Assembly (NCBI GenBank): GCA_951406725.2
Contig: OX597820.1
Location: 68,882,001 to 68,946,000, forward strand
Direction of reading: 5' to 3'
Source of the DNA: Octopus vulgaris
Lineage: Eukaryota
DNA length: 64,000 nt
This document shows, piece after piece, positions 1,741 through 43,899 of the stretch; the first letter of the stretch is position 1, and the number at the start of each line of letters is the position of its first letter. A model generated the notes under the pieces. The model ran no database searches, was not told the origin of the DNA, and saw only the letters and a list, made by a program, of their open reading frames with translations. The position numbers were made by a program, and so were the translations under genes.

Positions 1741-2967
1741 TAAGGGTTGGACAAAATAATGGAAACAACTAGCATCATAGCATCATAATTTTGAAATATC
1801 TATAAAACCACCGACAGCTTGTTTATTTTTAGGTTTTTTTTGTTTTATTATAAGTGTTGCTTAATATGTTTTGCTAAAATTGCTGTTTCTTCTCAGATAT
1901 CATCAGAAAAAATTAAAATTCTTTAAAATGACACATCTATCGGACTTTCAAAGAGGTCAAATTGTTGGTGCGCGTGTGACAGGCGCTAGCGTAACGAAAA
2001 CAGCCGAAATGTTTGGTGTATCAAGAAGAAGCGTATCGAATGTAATGACAGCATTTGAGAAAGAGGGAAAAGCCTCCTCGTCGAACCAAAATTTCTAAAG
2101 GAAACCAAAACTTTCAGATACGGACCGTCGGACTATAGCGCGAATTGTTAGAAAGGATCACAAAAGTACAGCTCTCAAAATTACTGCAGAGCATAATGAC
2201 CACCTCAAGAACCCAGTTTCTGCAAAAAGTGTTCACCGGGAGCTGCACAAAGCCGGATTTCACGGGAGGGCTGCAATCAGAAAACCACTACTTTCAAAAA
2301 CAAACGTTGCAAAGCGTTTAAAGTGGAGTAAAATCCTACATAATTGGTCTCTAGAGCTGTACAAGAATGCTATTCTCTCGGACGAATAATTCTTCACCTT
2401 ATCTCCGACCACCGGCCGAGTATACATGTGGAGATAGCCAAAAAGAAACATTTGACCCAGACTGCCTTCTTCCAACGGTTAAACATGGAGGAGGATCTGT
2501 GATGATCTGGGGCTATATCTTGATAATCCGCCGGACCAATGGTTTCTTTTCATAGCAGAATTAATAGTCCTATGGTTGCGGAAATGTTTCCGGAGGGAAA
2601 CGCAATCTTTCAGTATGATAATTCACCAATTCACACAGCTAAAGTTGTTGCTGAATGGCACGAGGAACATTCTAGTGAAGTTGAACATCTTATCTGGTCA
2701 GCACCGTCCCCAGATCTCAATATTATTGAACATTTATGGTGCACTTTAGAAGAACAAGTAAGGAGTCAATATCCTCCACCATCATCACTACAATACCTGG
2801 AGACTGCTTTAGCTGAAGAATGGACAAAAATTCCTTTGGAAACAATTCAAACTTTGTACGAATCCATACCTCGAAGAATTCAACCTGTAAATGCTGCGAA
2901 AGTCGGTCCCATATTAAAATAAATTTGTTTGAAATTTTAAGGTGTTTCTATTATTTTGTCCAACCCT

Positions 2968-2969
<2 letters not shown>
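1741..2969 (+). mobile_element. Tc1/mariner-superfamily DNA transposon, DD36E (Incomer-like), decayed
   Basis: About 29-bp TIRs: TAAGGGTTGGACAAAATAATGGAAACAAC (1741) versus reverse complement of GGTGTTTCTATTATTTTGTCCAACCCTTG (2941-2969), with TA on both sides. The interior encodes Tc1 transposase motifs. Confidence 0.95.
1928..2922 (+). pseudogene. Tc1-type transposase pseudogene (stops, frameshift, short internal deletion)
   Basis: MTHLSDFQRGQIVGAR..SVTKTAEMFGVSR (HTH), RKPLLSK, SDE, PTVKHGGGSVMIWG, FQYDNSPIH, SPDLNIIEHLW. In-frame TAA at 2096 and later stops. Residues appear missing between RINS and PMV. Confidence 0.92.
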
Positions 2970-3029
<60 letters not shown>

Positions 3030-3034
3030 TATAT

Positions 3035-6228: not shown

Positions 6229-6793
6229 CTGTAAAATAAAATATATAATAAAAATGCCATATACATATTTCAAATGAGCATATTTCATACGTGACAAATT
6301 TTGATTAATTTTTGTTATACACAGACGATGGGTTTATGTGGCATGATCAAGTTTGGTCTATAAAACACGTTTTTTTTTTTCACTTCAAAACAAATGAGAG
6401 ATAGATATTCACCTGCACAGTATTATATTGTGAGACAAAATGTTACGAACCACAGCGAGTATTTTCACGGAGTTTATACACACACATGCGAACACATGCA
6501 TTTACAAACACACGTATATATTTATATATGAATAAATGTAACTATAATATATATTAAGTATATATGTATATTTAAGTATAAGAACTCAGCGTTGAATATA
6601 TCTTATCCAACTCTACTTTGGTCTATTGAGAACTTATCGTTGAATTTCACTCACACATATATCTGTGTTTGTGTGTGTTTGTGTAAATTTGCGTGTGTGT
6701 GTGTGCATGACAGTCAAAGGAAACGATTGCGAAGGGAATCACCCAACAGATAATAACAGAAAGCATAACAAAGTTGAAAAGATACTTTCCATC

Positions 6794-6945
6794 ATAGATT
6801 ATTTACATTCGACAGATATCTGTCCTCATCACTTAACCACTACGCCATATACTCACGACATATGGCGTAGTGCTTAAGAGATGAGGACAGAGCGCGGGCT
6901 ACTAACCCCAAGATTCCGAGTTCGATTCCAAGCAGAGACCTGAAC

Positions 6946-7003
<58 letters not shown>

Positions 7004-7175
7004 TCGAAAAATACCTTACGAATGAGAACCCAGGTTCGAAATTTCCCCCAAGACACCTGAAGAAGGCTGGAAGGTATATCAACCGAAACGTTGTGTTAAC
7101 AGCAAACATGATGAGGACAAATAGCCGTCGAATGTAAATAGTGTACATAATTCCTCATCTTTTAAATGTAGAACT
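6794..7175 (+). mobile_element. Composite short retroelement: inverted tail copy + fold-back + tRNA-like Pol III head + (AAT)n + hammerhead module (family H1)
   Basis: 12-bp direct repeat ATACTTTCCATC at 6782-6793 and 7176-7187. A-box-like TGGCGTAGTGCTT (6863), B-box GAGTTCGATTCC (about 6918), (AAT)n 6946-7001, hammerhead motif 7052-7097. Confidence 0.85.
7052..7097 (+). ncRNA. Minimal type-I hammerhead ribozyme motif
   Basis: GACAC-CUGAAGA-A-GGCUG(loop)CAACC-GAAAC-GUU^-GUGUU. Stem I is GACAC/GUGUU, stem II has one mismatch, and stem III is reduced to palindromic AACGUU. Activity untested. Confidence 0.7.
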
Positions 7176-7802
7176 ATACTTTCCATCGGTTACAATGGAA
7201 AGAATGCAATTTACATAGTTCGATAGATACAAACTAACGAATATTTATGTGTGTGTGAGTGTGTTATGTGTGTGCGTTGGATTTGTAACCTTTAATTCTT
7301 GATGTCATTAGTATTTTGAGTATTTCGGACTTTTTTGTCACTAAACGTATGTACACGTTTTATACTTAGTTTATTAAATATTCTTTGTATATAGAGCTGC
7401 CTAACTTGCTTATCCTTCCATTTACCATTTTACCTGTTCAAGTTTAAATCTTTTGACCACTACTAGGTGTATTCTATACGGAGGATATCCGATTCTCATC
7501 TGGGAATTATACACACATATATGCACATACGTAATTAGTTGTGTAATCCGCTATATAATAAATGTAGGTGGTAAATATGGAAGAGCAACAGTTTCCAAGC
7601 AAGCAACTGACCAGCGAACACTTATTTTAGAATTACAATCTGCCGGGGAGTCAGGAATAATATGCACGATTTTTCCTAAATTTCACATGTACCATACATC
7701 GATTTTTCTCAACAGAATCACAGTAGTAGAGCATTATTCCTTTCTGAAGTAACACCTTCTTCCTTATAGGAAGAATTATAATAATTAAAGTAACAAAGGT
7801 AC

Positions 7803-7949
<147 letters not shown>

Positions 7950-7988
7950 GTACATATATACATATATATACATATATATACATACATA

Positions 7989-8022
<34 letters not shown>

Positions 8023-8320
8023 AAAATATATTTTTATAAACACACACTCCCACATGTTTTACGTATGCCAATTATATTTCCACGTTGATATCATTATAAT
8101 TGGATGAAACTAGTATTAATTTTATTTATATTTTTATCTATTTATGTATTATTATTTTTTTTTTTCATAATTTGTTGTAATAATTTCTAAAGAATCCGCA
8201 TTGATTTCAGTGCTAATCAGGATATATAATGGGTGTCTTTTGTTTGCATAGCCTTGTTTATGTGTGTGAAAAACCATGAGTGCGCGTGCGTGAGTGTACA
8301 TGTATATAGAAACGCATACT

Positions 8321-8368
<48 letters not shown>

Positions 8369-8408
8369 TACGTATCTATCTATCTATCTAACTACATATA
8401 TGTATATA

Positions 8409-8575
<167 letters not shown>

Positions 8576-9052
8576 CTATCTTTGTGTGCGTTGCTGTATC
8601 AGTGCGTTTCAATGTGAGCATGAGGAAATATAGATTATATGAGTATGAAGAAAATATTTCCTTGATTTCTTAGTTAATTTTAAGCTATTTTAAACTATTC
8701 TATGTACTTCAGTAATTGATAAATTGCTTTTCTCACTAATGGATAATAACAATCAACTGTTTTGTATGCGGGTACATACTTTAGCATGTGTGCAGAGACC
8801 TTGGCACGGTGCATTCGCACACAGTCTTATGTCATTTAATATTCTTGTATATGCCCGAACAGAAGTCTCTCCTTGTGTGTGTTTGAGTGCATGGCGTATG
8901 CCTGGGTATATGTGATTACCTATCTCCCTATCTGACTGTGTTTCTATAAATCTGTCGGTCTGTCACGCTTCTCTCCCTTTACATATATACATACCACTCA
9001 TACACATGCGCGCACAGACGAACACACAAAGACATGCACGCGCACACACACA

Positions 9053-9103
<51 letters not shown>

Positions 9104-9129
9104 ATTAGAATTAATTAAATACGAAAAAC

Positions 9130-9282
9130 AGCATTTTATGCTTATAAAACCTACACGCGTTTCAGTATGTCACTACCAGGATTATGTAATTGATAAATTA
9201 CATCTTCAGTATTTAGCAAACAACACAAGGTCTGGGTTGCTCCTATATACACATATTCATGTTATGTATTCTTAATTGCTAT
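9130..9282 (-). repeat. Old interspersed repeat (family H4), homologous to 13027-13210
   Basis: Shared TTTTATG.TTATAAAA..TA.ACGCGTTTC.G.A...CACT.CCAGG...TCTTCAGT.TTTAGCA.A.AA.A.A..GGT.TG. Confidence 0.6.
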
Positions 9283-10395
9283 GTCAGAGGAAACAGAGCA
9301 ACTGTGATGATGATTCACAGCATCCCTTGGCACTGGGTAGAACATTATTCACATAGTGAAGGTCTGTATCGAAATGAATGCGCTCAATCAAAGGAATCTA
9401 AACGGATGTTTCTGGTGTTAAAGAGGGTCATGGCTGATGTGTACAACTAATGGAGACGGTTTTCCCGTCACAAAATGTCCCCACGAAAGCTTTGATGGAC
9501 CCAAATATGTAGAAGACATCCCAACTCCGGTGGTCTATGAATAACAATCGAAAACAGAAGCACATTTTTCCAAAGCAATCTCGTGAAACCCTTATCAATA
9601 CCTGCATTTATTTTTATGAAGAGTTATATAAAATAATTGCGATATACAACATAAACAGGCTGTATGTTAATAACACATCCATTCCTGTATTCCTTCATGA
9701 AGAGTCAGATAAAATATTACTTATACAACATACCAGCTGTATGTATAAGATATTCAGAAGAAGCAGACCATATGTAAAATGAAGTATCAAGCATATTTTT
9801 AGATTAATGAAATAATCATTATGGCATAGGAATAGAAAGGCCTAAAAGTATTATACGATTGTGTCTACAAGTCGAGGGAAGAAAAAAGCATTAATGATTA
9901 ATGAGAGCTTCAGACTTAAAGATGTATGTGCATCTGTGTGTGTGAGTGTGTGTGTGCATGTGTGTGTATGTGTGTGCGGTCTGGCGTGAATGTAGCCCAT
10001 ATATGTATGTGCATGCGAACGAGAGTAAATGGATTACTATTTGAGCAAAGTACTTCGTTGATTGGTTATCTAATTTTAGATTGTAAGCATTCGAATTGTC
10101 TTCACTTCAGAAATTTTTTTCTTAATTAGCAATTTCTTTTTTAGCATTACGTTAATCAGGTCAGTGACTATACTTGAATATATGTATGCATCTGTGCGTG
10201 TGTGTGAATATACCTTTGTATTTATACACTTAAATATGCATATGCTTATACATACATATACATACATACATGCATATATATATATATACATATATATATA
10301 CGTATATATGTATTTATATATATGCACGTATATCAGTATATAATGTATTCATGAGTATTATGAATATATATACATATACATACATACATACATAC

Positions 10396-10442
<47 letters not shown>

Positions 10443-10663: not shown

Positions 10664-11014
10664 AGAAGTCGAGCTGGCAGAAACGTTAGCATGCCGGGCG
10701 AAATTCTTAGCGGTATTTCGTCTGCCGTTACGTTCTGAGTTCAAATTGTGCTGAGGTCGACTTTGCCTCTCATCCTTTCGGGGTCGATAAATTAAGTACC
10801 AGTTACACACTGGGGTCGATGCAATCGACTTAATCCGTTTGTCTGTTCTTGTTTGTTCTCTCTGTGTTTAGCCCCTTGTGGGTAGTAAAGAAATAGGTAT
10901 TTCGTCGGTCCTTACAGTCTGAGCTCAAATTCCGTCGAGGTCGACTTTACCTTTCCTCCTTTCGGGGTCGATGAAATTAAGTACCAGTTGCTTACTGGGG
11001 TCCATATAATCAAC

Positions 11015-11018
<4 letters not shown>
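10664..11018 (+). mobile_element. tRNA-derived SINE family B (Deu/Nin-like central domain), internally duplicated
   Basis: GAGCTGGCAGAAACGTTAGCA..GAGTTCAAAT..GAGGTCGACTTTGCCT.TCATCCTTTCGGGGTCGATAAATTAAGTACCAGTT. The block from GGTATTTCGTC onward occurs twice (10712 and 10896). Confidence 0.85.
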
Positions 11019-11052
<34 letters not shown>

Positions 11053-24630: not shown

Positions 24631-25857
24631 GAAGAAGCTGTTGTTGTTTGTTATTTGTTTTTTGCTTGTACGTTAGCATATTGCAGGTTCAAAATGTATA
24701 TCTCTGGCAGTCATGCTCGAATGAATTATGAGTGTGAACCTAAGTTATTAATCACATGACCATGAATAGTTAGACATCTTGTGATCTTGTGCCAACGAGT
24801 GAAAGAGATATGCATAAACTTTCAAACAATCTCTATTATATGCCAAAAAGTTCAGAATAGAAAATAAACAAACATAATTTTGTAAAACAGAAAGTCGTGC
24901 TTCGAATGAAATATATGTACTTGTATTGTGTGGGAGTTATTATGTACGGGTGTATATATGGGTGTGTGTGTGTGTGAGAGAGAGAGAGTGAGAGGAAGGA
25001 GGTATATTTGTAGCTTATATGATGATGAACGTACTTGCGATTGTTAGTGTGTAGGATTGATATAAACTATACATCGACATAGAAATATTTACAAAAATAT
25101 GTTTTTTATGTAATTATAATATACAAGGTGAGCATTTTTGCATCCGCGATTATGCATGTGTTTCTAGTGTGCGTGTATATATACGCTCGTGTATATGTGG
25201 TGCGCGTGTTTATGTTCGCGTGAAGTTGTACCCGATCTTAAGAATGTAGTTGTTAGATATTAAATATATAATTTGAAAACTTCATTTTTTTTTTTGATGT
25301 CAGAAAATTTCTGCCATGATATTATTGTCATGAAGCTAGTGAAATGCTAAAATGCTAAGATTTGGCTTCCAGTTAACATATAAATAAATAGTGCTTTCTT
25401 TTCTAATATTCAAAAGCGTAATGACAAATCTATTAAGATCCCTATTCCATCTTTACTGAAAATTATGTCTTAATGTCACGCACCAACATGTATGTTAGAT
25501 GCATAAAACATAGTTGTTATCTGTTTGTCTTTTGCTTCATGATATTTTTTATTATTTTAGGGATCCTTTTGCTCTGAGGGATTTTTGCACCTCTGTTTAT
25601 TTCATTTTATTTTATATATTTATTTTTGGTAAAAAAACAAGTATTCGGCTGGAAGGTTTTTTTAATTTTTTTCATAGGGTAGGGGATATATGCCAAAGCG
25701 AAAAAAACGTTTCGATGTTATTTTAGTCTCCTCAGCATATTTTCTAACAGCCTATTGTTCTTTATCTAAATATATCTGATATATTTGTGTGTGTGTGTGT
25801 GTGAGTGAGTGAGTGTATTTTACACACACACACAGACACAAGCACACATAAAATATG

Positions 25858-41351: not shown

Positions 41352-42914
41352 AATGATGATCGTTCATATTCAGCTATGTATGACATTGATGCTTCAAAAA
41401 CATAATAGCACTACTGCAATGCCTGTAGCTTGCTAAATTCTTGAAACACTGAGAGTAGCCAATGAAAAACTATGGAAATAGCAGTAAAAACAATAATAAA
41501 AACAACAACAACAACGATAACAACAATAATAATAATAATAATGTTGATGTTGATGATGATGATGATGATGATGATTACGACGATGATGATAATGATGACA
41601 ATGATGATGATGAAATAAATAAATAAATCAGAAGGGAGGACAATTGCTGTTATGTCCCGAGGCCAATTTATGTTGAGCAGCTTAGCCAGATAAAGCTTTT
41701 GTCGCTTGGTAAGATTATGGCAGCATGTTTTTGCGCACAACATGATGTTGCTACAATAGTGGGCGCTGATGTAACACATGCAACAGTCATATTATTTCAG
41801 TATAGTCAATTGCAGCACAATTAAAGGAAGGAAAATATCAACTGGAAAGCGTAGGATTTCATTGTGTGCTATGAAATATATTCATTCATTGGATGTAGCT
41901 AGGGAAACAGTGAAGTACGCATCAGAAAAAATTGTCGTTGATGCAGCTCTTACTCTAATTGGTTTTGTTTCTGAAAATAATGTTCTTTTAATAATTATAG
42001 AATTGAAATAGACAAATTGGTATTAGGCCAAGGTGTGTTATTTGATTAAAAGTCTTGGACAGCAATAACTTAGTAGTGTACAGGTGTTTTATATTTCTAT
42101 GTGTAGTTGAATGAAGTAGCAATGCGGAGTAATCATTCCAGAATAGCCCACAACAAGTAGCAGGTATCTAGTTTGTATTGTAAGTGCACTAAATATTAAA
42201 AATTTCTAGAATATTCCTGGTAGCAGTTTGAACCCTTCCCTCCTTCACAGGAGTTTATTGATTACGTATAGTGCTGCCTTTGGGGAAAAGGGTATTATTA
42301 GATGGTTTCATAGTTTATGAATCATAAAGGTGGGGACAGGGATTTCGGCAGTATGGAGATGACAATCCTGTTTAGAACTAACTCTGCAACTTCAAACACA
42401 CCGATGCCATTCCTTCATTTTGTAATTCTATTTCTCTTGATAAACCAAAGATTTTATACCCAAATAAAATAATTTTTCTGTCATTGTCCTTGCAATGTCT
42501 TCGAGAAAGCTCACAATCTGTATTCTTTTTATTTTTCGCACACACAAATGCTTAAGGCTTCTCGCTTAACAACTAACCATTCTGTTCAGGATTGATTTTT
42601 TTCTTTGTTTAATTTTCAATGTTTTTTTTTCTATTTCAGTTGCATAAAACGAAACGATAATATGAAACAAATGACATATAGTTTCTTCCTTCAGTCACTT
42701 CTAACAAATACAATCTTGCTACTGTATGATCGATCTCCTGCAAATAGACATATATCTAGACAATATTTGAGAATACTACTGTTACACCAAGAGCCAACGA
42801 ACGAAATCTAGAAGTTGCGCAAAGTTTTAGAACTAGGAACTCAAATCTCCAACTCATTACACCTCTTTAAAATATTACACAATGGATAATATACCACGTG
42901 GTACATTATACCTG

Positions 42915-43091
42915 TTCTATATTTAAGAGATGAGGGATTATGTACATTATTTACATTATTTACAATTGACGGATATTTATCCTCATCTTGTTTGTTGTTA
43001 ACAGACCGTTTCGGCTGATATACCCCCCAGCTTTCATCAGGTGTCTTGGGGAAATTTCGAACCTGGGTTCTCATTCCTAAGGTATTTTCGA

Positions 43092-43156
<65 letters not shown>

Positions 43157-43322
43157 GAACAACTACAACAACATCGAAAAATATCTTAGGAATGAGAACC
43201 CAGGTTCGAAATTTCTCCCAAGACAACTGATGAAAAACAGGTGGGTATATCAGACGTAACGTTGTGTTAACAACAAACAAGATGAGGACAAATATCCATC
43301 AATTGTAAATAATGTAAATAAT
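42915..43322 (-). mobile_element. Family H1 head-to-head (palindromic) insertion with two hammerhead modules around (ATT)n
   Basis: Minus copy 42915-43094 and plus copy 43170-43326, both matching 7001-7175. 14-bp direct repeat GTACATTATACCTG at 42901 and 43323. Confidence 0.88.
43000..43045 (-). ncRNA. Minimal hammerhead motif (variant copy)
   Basis: GACAC-CUGAUGA-A-AGCUG(loop)CAGCC-GAAAC-GGUC-UGUU. Core boxes are intact; the cleavage-site region differs from the 7052 copy. Confidence 0.55.
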
Positions 43323-43899
43323 GTACATTATACCTGAGAAAAATAAAAGTAACACTTGGCTTCTAGTGTGAGAGAATGACTTTGAACGTATCCCTGCTTA
43401 TCAAGTTCAATGTGGGCTTCACAATAATGAATTAGTTTACATTGCTTAGAACAATATGCATTAGAGTTGGTCACCCATTCATTCATACTAATGACCGAAT
43501 TATTGCATGCAGGACGCATATACAAGTATTTTTTACTTTGTTGAAGGAAATTCGTATTTACGCACACAGGAAGTTATACTCAACCATTCCATTCATTCAT
43601 GTATTCATATAAACACTCACGCACAGACAAATGAATATCCATGCCTGAAGATGTAGCTGATGATCGATTTAATATTTACTAACAATTGATTATCAACAAC
43701 TGAATCGCTCCTGGTGAATATCTGAAATACCAACTATTTGTTTTCTTGTTGTCCTCTTAAACTTTATGTAGCTCTACTTGTTAGGTAATAATCCTAATCC
43801 AAACACAAGCTCCATTCATAGCATTATATTTCTTTGAGTGTTTAACGTAGATCTATTTCCACTCTCACCATTCTATTGTAATTTGTCGCACAGTCAGCG

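Follow-up and report, generated by a model that had tools for sequence, protein, structure and literature searches.

A tRNA-Arg-like head, predicted to act as an internal Pol III promoter, in the terminal repeat of an abundant autonomous PLE of Octopus vulgaris

To our knowledge, autonomous retroelements are held to use Pol II, with R2 relying on Pol I co-transcription. Pol III promoters are regarded as confined to elements that are short and non-coding (PMC10886601), and the nearest precedents that we found for the arrangement described here, in sources available to us in part, are all non-autonomous. The schistosome Sm-alpha and Sj-alpha repeats combine a Pol III promoter and a hammerhead within one repeat, as is predicted for our family, but they are non-coding tandem repeats with canonical hammerheads, and the available portion of the source describes no role for them as the pLTR of an autonomous element (PMC6765202). 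The TRIMp3 elements Cassandra, Helenus and Ajax likewise carry a small-RNA-derived Pol III promoter in their terminal repeat; however, they are non-autonomous LTR elements of 0.3-1.3 kb, whose autonomous partners have been argued to need Pol II, whereas the segment reported here lies inside an autonomous element (PMC10886601). Non-LTR retrozymes resemble our repeats in bearing hammerheads and in stemming from PLE pLTRs, but are head-to-tail tandem monomers released by cleavage (PMC7229834; bioRxiv 10.64898/2026.07.22.740005). Word searches of the available text found neither 'Pol III' nor 'polymerase III' in PMC7229834, and none of 'tRNA', 'promoter' and 'polymerase III' in the preprint. Poseidon of Anolis carolinensis shares with our family a single RT and GIY-YIG ORF, a pLTR and an ORF that starts at the hammerhead (PMC11167929), as well as two internal RT start sites bounding an optional tail and truncated or inverted insertions (PMC11167929, PMC8557442); truncation, inversion and tail are regarded as PLE hallmarks (PMC8557442). 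In contrast to our family, a tRNA-derived segment or Pol III promoter goes undescribed for Poseidon in the portion of PMC11167929 available, and the promoter of D. virilis Penelope is of the Inr/DPE type (PMC2377424). Across the literature searched, which took in few subscription titles and stopped short of Repbase, Dfam and preprint supplements, we found no PLE pLTR described as carrying a promoter of tRNA origin or one for Pol III. PLEs make up 6.83% of the octopus genome covered by the published repeat annotation paper, in which, together with one of its supplements, a word search found no detail on tRNA heads or Pol III in PLEs.

The locus compared here with these systems is an insertion at 6782-7187 of the window, as we call the whole stretch of 64,000 nucleotides that was analysed. 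The first-pass annotation described it as a single TSD-bounded insertion fusing a tRNA-type Pol III promoter, an (AAT)n spacer and a minimal hammerhead ribozyme, and much of that description stands. The 12-bp direct repeat ATACTTTCCATC is found at both 6782 and 7176, forming the left (6782..6793) and right (7176..7187) target-site duplications, and the reading as a single insertion holds, with TSDs above chance family-wide: a flank word of at least 8 nt is shared in 24 of 34 two-armed insertions versus 28 of 1122 mismatched flank pairs. The A-box-like motif (6863-6873) and the B box (6918-6929) are both present on the plus strand and found by box-pattern scoring, within a tRNA-Arg-like head (6856..6945, plus strand) that is delimited by tRNA-Arg(TCT) alignment, tRNA profile and box scoring. 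The spacer, put at about 18 units, measures 18.7 in a repeat scan (6946..7001, plus strand) and differs in length among copies, and the hammerhead strings GACACCTGAAGA and GAAACGTTGTGTT lie at 7052 and 7085. Two parts had been overlooked. One is an internally deleted inverted arm (6794..6850, minus strand), recognised from inverted repeats I1 and I2, which repeats in reverse orientation the start of the head and a portion of the tail: head positions 5-23 are fused to module positions ~108-145, and its terminus falls at the no-tail position. It meets the head at a decayed fold-back junction in the head-start palindrome (6851..6859), located from arm-start counts, which put the beginning of ~80% of head-containing arms here. 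The other is an insertion of 12 nt, derived from the tail, that lies between the two boxes (~6881-6892, plus strand). The 80-nt stretch that had been called a tail does exist as sequence, but it is coding and belongs to the start of a PLE ORF, the first ~51 codons of which occupy 7022..7175 on the plus strand, from the ATG at 7022, as judged from natural copy L128 and an alignment with P0008; an extra C at 7049, likewise overlooked, puts the window copy out of frame. The PLE 'tail' in the usual sense is the ~30 nt between two inferred RT start sites (7146..7175, plus strand), placed from arm-end positions and from the portions of PMC11167929 and PMC8557442 available. With its truncation, its two arms, a 12-bp TSD and a 30-nt tail confined to one end, the window copy is typical of PLE insertions, and a second family member (42901..43336, minus strand) consists of two head-less arms joined in the (AAT)n, with a 14-bp TSD, a tail at one end and the hammerhead core CUGAUGA. 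Truncated two-armed insertion, tail, TSD and minimal hammerhead are all known PLE biology; the head is the new part.

Head, (AAT)n and the hammerhead-bearing module together are the terminal repeat (pLTR) of an abundant autonomous PLE of ~2.6 kb, because the head trails a stop codon and the module runs into an ORF. In the host genome (2.8 Gb in 227 contigs), an upstream walk from copies extending past the head led into an endonuclease C-terminus, then an RT (a PF00078 match in Pfam), then a near-full-length copy; such natural copies include L120, at 2.57 kb, and L151, with 569 open codons covering RT and endonuclease. The head begins ~29 nt past the endonuclease stop codon in 27 of 30 loci selected by endonuclease, and in L128 the frame is open from the module ATG (the equivalent of window 7022) through the hammerhead into the ORF body, the family N-terminus being 45% identical to that of the relative P0008 (E 5e-27). 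The order is therefore ORF (RT, endonuclease), stop codon, 29 nt, tRNA-like head, (AAT)n, ATG, hammerhead and the ORF of the next tandem unit, and the pLTR with its hammerhead can be read from partial tandems such as L137 and L145. The endonuclease region aligns to PLE proteins P0032 and P0043, and to P0118 and P0086 (these carry PF01541); the Pfam GIY-YIG model gave no match to the family endonuclease, which we take to be GIY-YIG on homology and a motif. An RT and, at the C-terminus of the same ORF, a GIY-YIG-type endonuclease make up the layout of an EN+ PLE. Searching the same genome with a distant PLE protein returned the window family alone among the 30 loci fetched, and a scan of viral contigs found no relative. 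As separate observations, the N-termini of P0008, P0011 and P0043 fit translation through the hammerhead core, as far as protein sequence alone can tell, and PLE ORFs, several with hammerheads, occur in bacterial genome bins (L259-L265), probably as host DNA contamination.

The claim of a minimal PLE-type hammerhead (7052..7097, plus strand), which rests on motif match, covariation and the description in the available part of PMC4209133, is upheld. Stem I pairs 7052-7056 with 7093-7097, the core CUGAAGA occupies 7057-7063, a bulged A follows at 7064, and stem II pairs 7065-7069 with 7080-7084 and is followed by GAAAC-GUU, with the cut predicted after 7092. Stem II has one mismatch in the window copy, a C-A at which 7082 is A (family: G 142, A 24). 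With a structure set by hand, 85% of stem cells are paired over 10 PLE copies from 8-9 families, a level reached by 0 of 500 shuffles and compared with 22-45% in slid controls. The conserved core, the covarying stems I and II and the palindromic stub of stem III make this a minimal type I hammerhead. According to the same partly available source (PMC4209133), minimal hammerheads of metazoan PLEs likewise lack stem III, are palindromic at 15.2-16.2, and have a bulged base before stem II and a G10.1-C11.1 pair; the window family differs in a U at position 17 and a mixed position 7 (T 90, A 77), nothing essential. As a monomer, the hammerhead fold has an energy of -5.5 kcal/mol versus -10.1 for the lowest-energy fold. 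Since A14 and N17 are hammerhead core positions, ACGU alone can pair in the active fold, and AACGUU as a 6-bp dimer helix was rejected. In the Anolis PLE, cleavage is protein-assisted and dispensable for insertion in vitro (PMC11167929, in part). The overlap between ORF and hammerhead appears, from protein sequence alone, to be kept across distant PLEs, and ribozymes have been tied to translation initiation in RNA viruses (PMC13725137, in part). As an observation in its own right, the 5' ends of 7 of 90 arms (L346, L348, L381, L408, L410, L411 and L414; module 90-94, equivalent to window 7092-7096) lie within 5 nt of the predicted cut site (expected ~1, P 8e-5), a possible genomic trace of cleaved RNA templates, although a GTTAAC palindrome is found there as well.

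The tRNA derivation of the head, claimed in the first-pass annotation, is confirmed by a lengthwise alignment to the genome's own tRNA-Arg(TCT) (L296), which scores 64 versus 34 +/- 3.8 for shuffled sequence. A profile built from the genome's tRNAs, 30 fetched loci less duplicates, also matches the head, at E 1.3e-6 in L006 and 1.1e-4 in the window copy, and gave no match in 14 stop-to-hammerhead intervals of other PLEs. Such a tRNA-derived head with A and B boxes is a feature of tRNA-SINEs. Rfam, run on the whole window with gathering thresholds and at E 10 on 6700-7300, L181 and L012, gave no tRNA or hammerhead match and returned hairpin-type chance matches alone, and ARAGORN called no tRNA in the heads. 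Because both fail to recognise the head, its cloverleaf is decayed, acceptor and anticodon stems included, while the boxes are intact. The claim that the head is a Pol III promoter is probably right as a prediction: the 5' pile-up at the head, the lack of a shared T4 run and the boxes in L181, all described below, make it likely that this segment is an internal promoter from which Pol III transcribes the template for transposition.

The reading that we favour, and regard as reasonably probable, is that Pol III starts before the head and reads into the ORF, and that reverse transcription from +125/+155 to the RNA 5' end is followed by fold-back or microhomology joining. In the step that we infer, a tandem or full-length master would be transcribed by Pol III from ~6 nt ahead of the head, and the polymerase, meeting no T4 run, would continue past the ATG and the ribozyme into the ORF. 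The element protein would then bind this RNA and begin reverse transcription internally, at ~+125 or ~+155 of the ORF, and the cDNA would be copied back over ~290 nt to the RNA 5' end, where it would fold back on, or join through, the small palindrome. The outcome would be a mass of short, SINE-looking, two-armed copies that end at RT start sites and are probably dead ends. The PLE steps of this scheme follow the Anolis PLE, for which internal initiation of reverse transcription has been shown: two RT start sites within its ORF bound the tail, and the ORF begins in the hammerhead (PMC11167929, in part).

The 5' ends of natural copies bear directly on this proposal. Among 30 loci found by the head tag, 24 start at about -7..+3 of the head and 6 run on upstream, three of the latter looking like duplicates of one insertion; long arms such as L136, L137 and L145 extend past the head into the upstream endonuclease. 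The ends of 90 arms chosen by a 3' tag are distributed as follows: module 24, spacer 28, head interior 18, head start 12 and further upstream 8. Of the 20 arms long enough to get to the head start, 12 thus go no further, whereas a hairpin of matching stability at module 25-36 stops 4 of ~82 (Fisher p 1e-7). The same pile-up was seen in the first 29+29 loci, a biased sample chosen by likeness to the window copy. These ends would place the RNA 5' end ~6 nt before the head, at a pyrimidine-purine step 13 nt ahead of the A box, which is the usual Pol III start geometry.

The pile-up might also arise in an ordinary Pol II-driven PLE that captured a tRNA or SINE head in its 3' UTR and now carries it as a passenger, through template switching at the palindrome or a coincident Pol II start, with the lack of T runs being compositional. 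We think this unlikely, even though the pLTR of D. virilis Penelope does have an Inr/DPE-type promoter (PMC2377424, in part), a small palindrome does coincide with the pile-up, and fold-backs are found at further hairpins, at head position 17 and module ~92. A hairpin of equal stability stops ~5% of arms, as against at least 60% at the head start, and most joins at the head start are not fold-backs: the 38 head starts comprise 11 with a fold-back signature, 20 other joins and 7 flagged as continuing upstream, a classification with one apparently false 'continuing' flag and one genuine case overlooked. Genome-wide, perfect fold-backs number 351 and ORF-linked junctions 402. The position of the predicted end, 13 nt before the A box as is general for Pol III, likewise speaks against a passenger. 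Transcript data would fit a passenger head in that three raw mRNA-seq runs of a related organism (~6% of each), aligned together with one contig set, showed no accumulation of read starts at either the head or the cut site. However, the 7,002-10,430 aligned reads per run, mostly <95% alike, come from both directions about equally, and 345-391 of them per run cross the fold-back junction, so the reads are host read-through and uninformative on Pol III.

A distant PLE provides a second case that a passenger head does not readily explain. In L181 (metagenome contig JGI1357J11328_10009043), full A and B boxes lie at 2759-3030 between stop codon and hammerhead, the same position as in the window family, with an AAT-rich stretch past the boxes and an ATG at the hammerhead. 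Its tandem unit of 2,791 bp has an intact ORF, the protein is 38% identical to that of the window family, and both fall in the same broad clade (FastTree, SH-like support 95; L263 was left out for its short match). In a survey of 36 PLE loci from metagenome or genome contigs with a stop-to-hammerhead interval, L181 scored 22/22 and the window family 21/22, versus at most 17 in the 35 other loci, many of which are redundant; the box patterns were consensus motifs, applied after both heads had been seen. The tRNA profile match of L181 is weak (E 0.019). T4 runs lie 235 and 354 nt past its A box, and Pol III RNA there might therefore be short only. L261, in the same clade and compared without its UTR, is rich in T runs.

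T runs, which would act as Pol III terminators, are scarce in the family. On the sense strand of the 2.57-kb element, shared T4 runs number 0 versus 31 shared A4 runs, and 16 long natural copies have T4 observed/expected ratios of 0-0.72 (median 0.2) with no T5, whereas 20 of 21 rows of head-less relatives lie at 0.62-2.64, the exception being L244, which has no T4 at 15% T; rows of copies and of relatives are not independent. L181 has the lowest T4 ratio among the informative non-family rows, a further point against a passenger head. Taken alone, however, the lack of T runs is a weak argument, and leaves room for composition: a synonymous shuffle with codon usage fixed gives P 0.087, a second-order Markov model expects 1.7 T4 runs, G4 runs are absent as well, and the head-less family L209, L226 and L231 has no T4 either in the ORF stretches measured.

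The SINE/retrozyme hybrid proposed in the first-pass annotation would be an independent, self-propagating non-autonomous element, a tRNA head fused to a PLE end and released by its hammerhead. Chance adjacency of its parts is ruled out by the linkage check, in which 26 of the first 30 loci chosen by the head tag alone had the module downstream and in the same orientation. Abundance would suit such an element: the 23-nt head tag has 3,743 exact matches genome-wide, compared with 402 for the ORF-linked junction tag (a rough ratio, the tags being different), and the 23-nt module tag has 10,513, a lower bound on arms, with 0 for both reversed controls. The short copies retain both boxes and could be transcribed, and Sm-alpha offers a precedent (PMC6765202, in part). 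Nevertheless, a separately built hybrid fails, since the head belongs to the PLE, lying after its stop codon in 27 of 30 loci, and the module holds the ORF start; we consider it improbable that the short copies sustain themselves. No separate SINE subfamily was found among 63 ORF-linked and 69 head-start arms, in which non-CpG polymorphisms (head 64, hammerhead position 7) occur at similar frequencies and no diagnostic variants set the short copies apart; the 1 of 27 variable columns that differs strongly lies at a B-box CpG and could reflect selection bias. A lineage separate from its partner, with a head foreign to that partner as in tRNA-SINEs, is therefore not what is seen. Two arms occur in 34 of 59 loci, 32 of the 34 have the 30-nt tail at exactly one end, and 5' truncation, an inverted 5' arm and a one-ended tail are PLE features. 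Copies stand head-to-head, in contrast to the head-to-tail monomers with cleavage-set ends of non-LTR retrozymes. Hammerhead cleavage as the source of the 3' ends is ruled out, because most of them lie at module positions 136-152 or 172-174. These are the two PLE tail positions, ~45-60 or ~80 nt downstream of the predicted cut. Comparison with autonomous PLE termini thus does match the tail to the PLE tail and ORF start, but not as the end of a separate element; mobilisation by PLE machinery, also claimed, is upheld. In addition, the short copies carry no ORF beyond ~+155, whereas the Anolis PLE needed RNA well beyond the RT start (PMC11167929, in part). With copies ~5-8% from the column majority in head and module and ~14% apart pairwise, the family is old and may be silent.

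Least probable of all is a tRNA-like fold that acts in the RNA and not as a promoter, e.g. as an RNase P cut site in a Pol II read-through transcript, which would likewise give a hard 5' end at the head and suit the many joins that start at +1..+3 as well as at -5/-6, but sits poorly with decayed acceptor and anticodon stems (no Rfam or ARAGORN tRNA call) beside intact boxes and leaves the T-run depletion unexplained.

Within the favoured reading of Pol III initiation at the head, we raise tentatively the further possibility that an autonomous coding retrotransposon has switched to Pol III, a terminator-free transcript of at least 2.6 kb serving as both template and uncapped mRNA. If so, the start codon, just upstream of the hammerhead, would be removed on cleavage, the arrangement in L181 would reflect either a lineage of PLEs driven by Pol III or tRNA promoters recruited more than once, and there would be a direct by-product route to SINE-like and Sm-alpha-like elements. 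A tRNA promoter in an autonomous PLE would either break the Pol II rule or show an element feeding a pool of short RNA templates. The structure offers a testable handle on PLE transcript starts and on the overlap of ORF start and hammerhead, and the SINE-looking repeats of this genome that are PLE ends number in the tens of thousands (10,513 exact module tags being a lower bound).

Several minor observations accompany these results. At 10712-11049 the window holds two ~184-nt copies of a different abundant SINE-like repeat, in which no similarity to the PLE head was found, and a third match to CUGANGA...CGAAAC, on the minus strand near 25741, has weak, AT-rich stems and is probably chance or a decayed member of another family. 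Four short composites (L123, L124, L126 and L127) join a pLTR, the first ~245-270 nt of the ORF and a pLTR beginning at the head start, a structure suggestive of template jumping from the 5' end of the RNA. In L009 and L025, the 3' ends of another retrotransposon ORF, which by motif we take to be Dong/R4-like, lie inside the (AAT)n spacer, consistent with microsatellite targeting.
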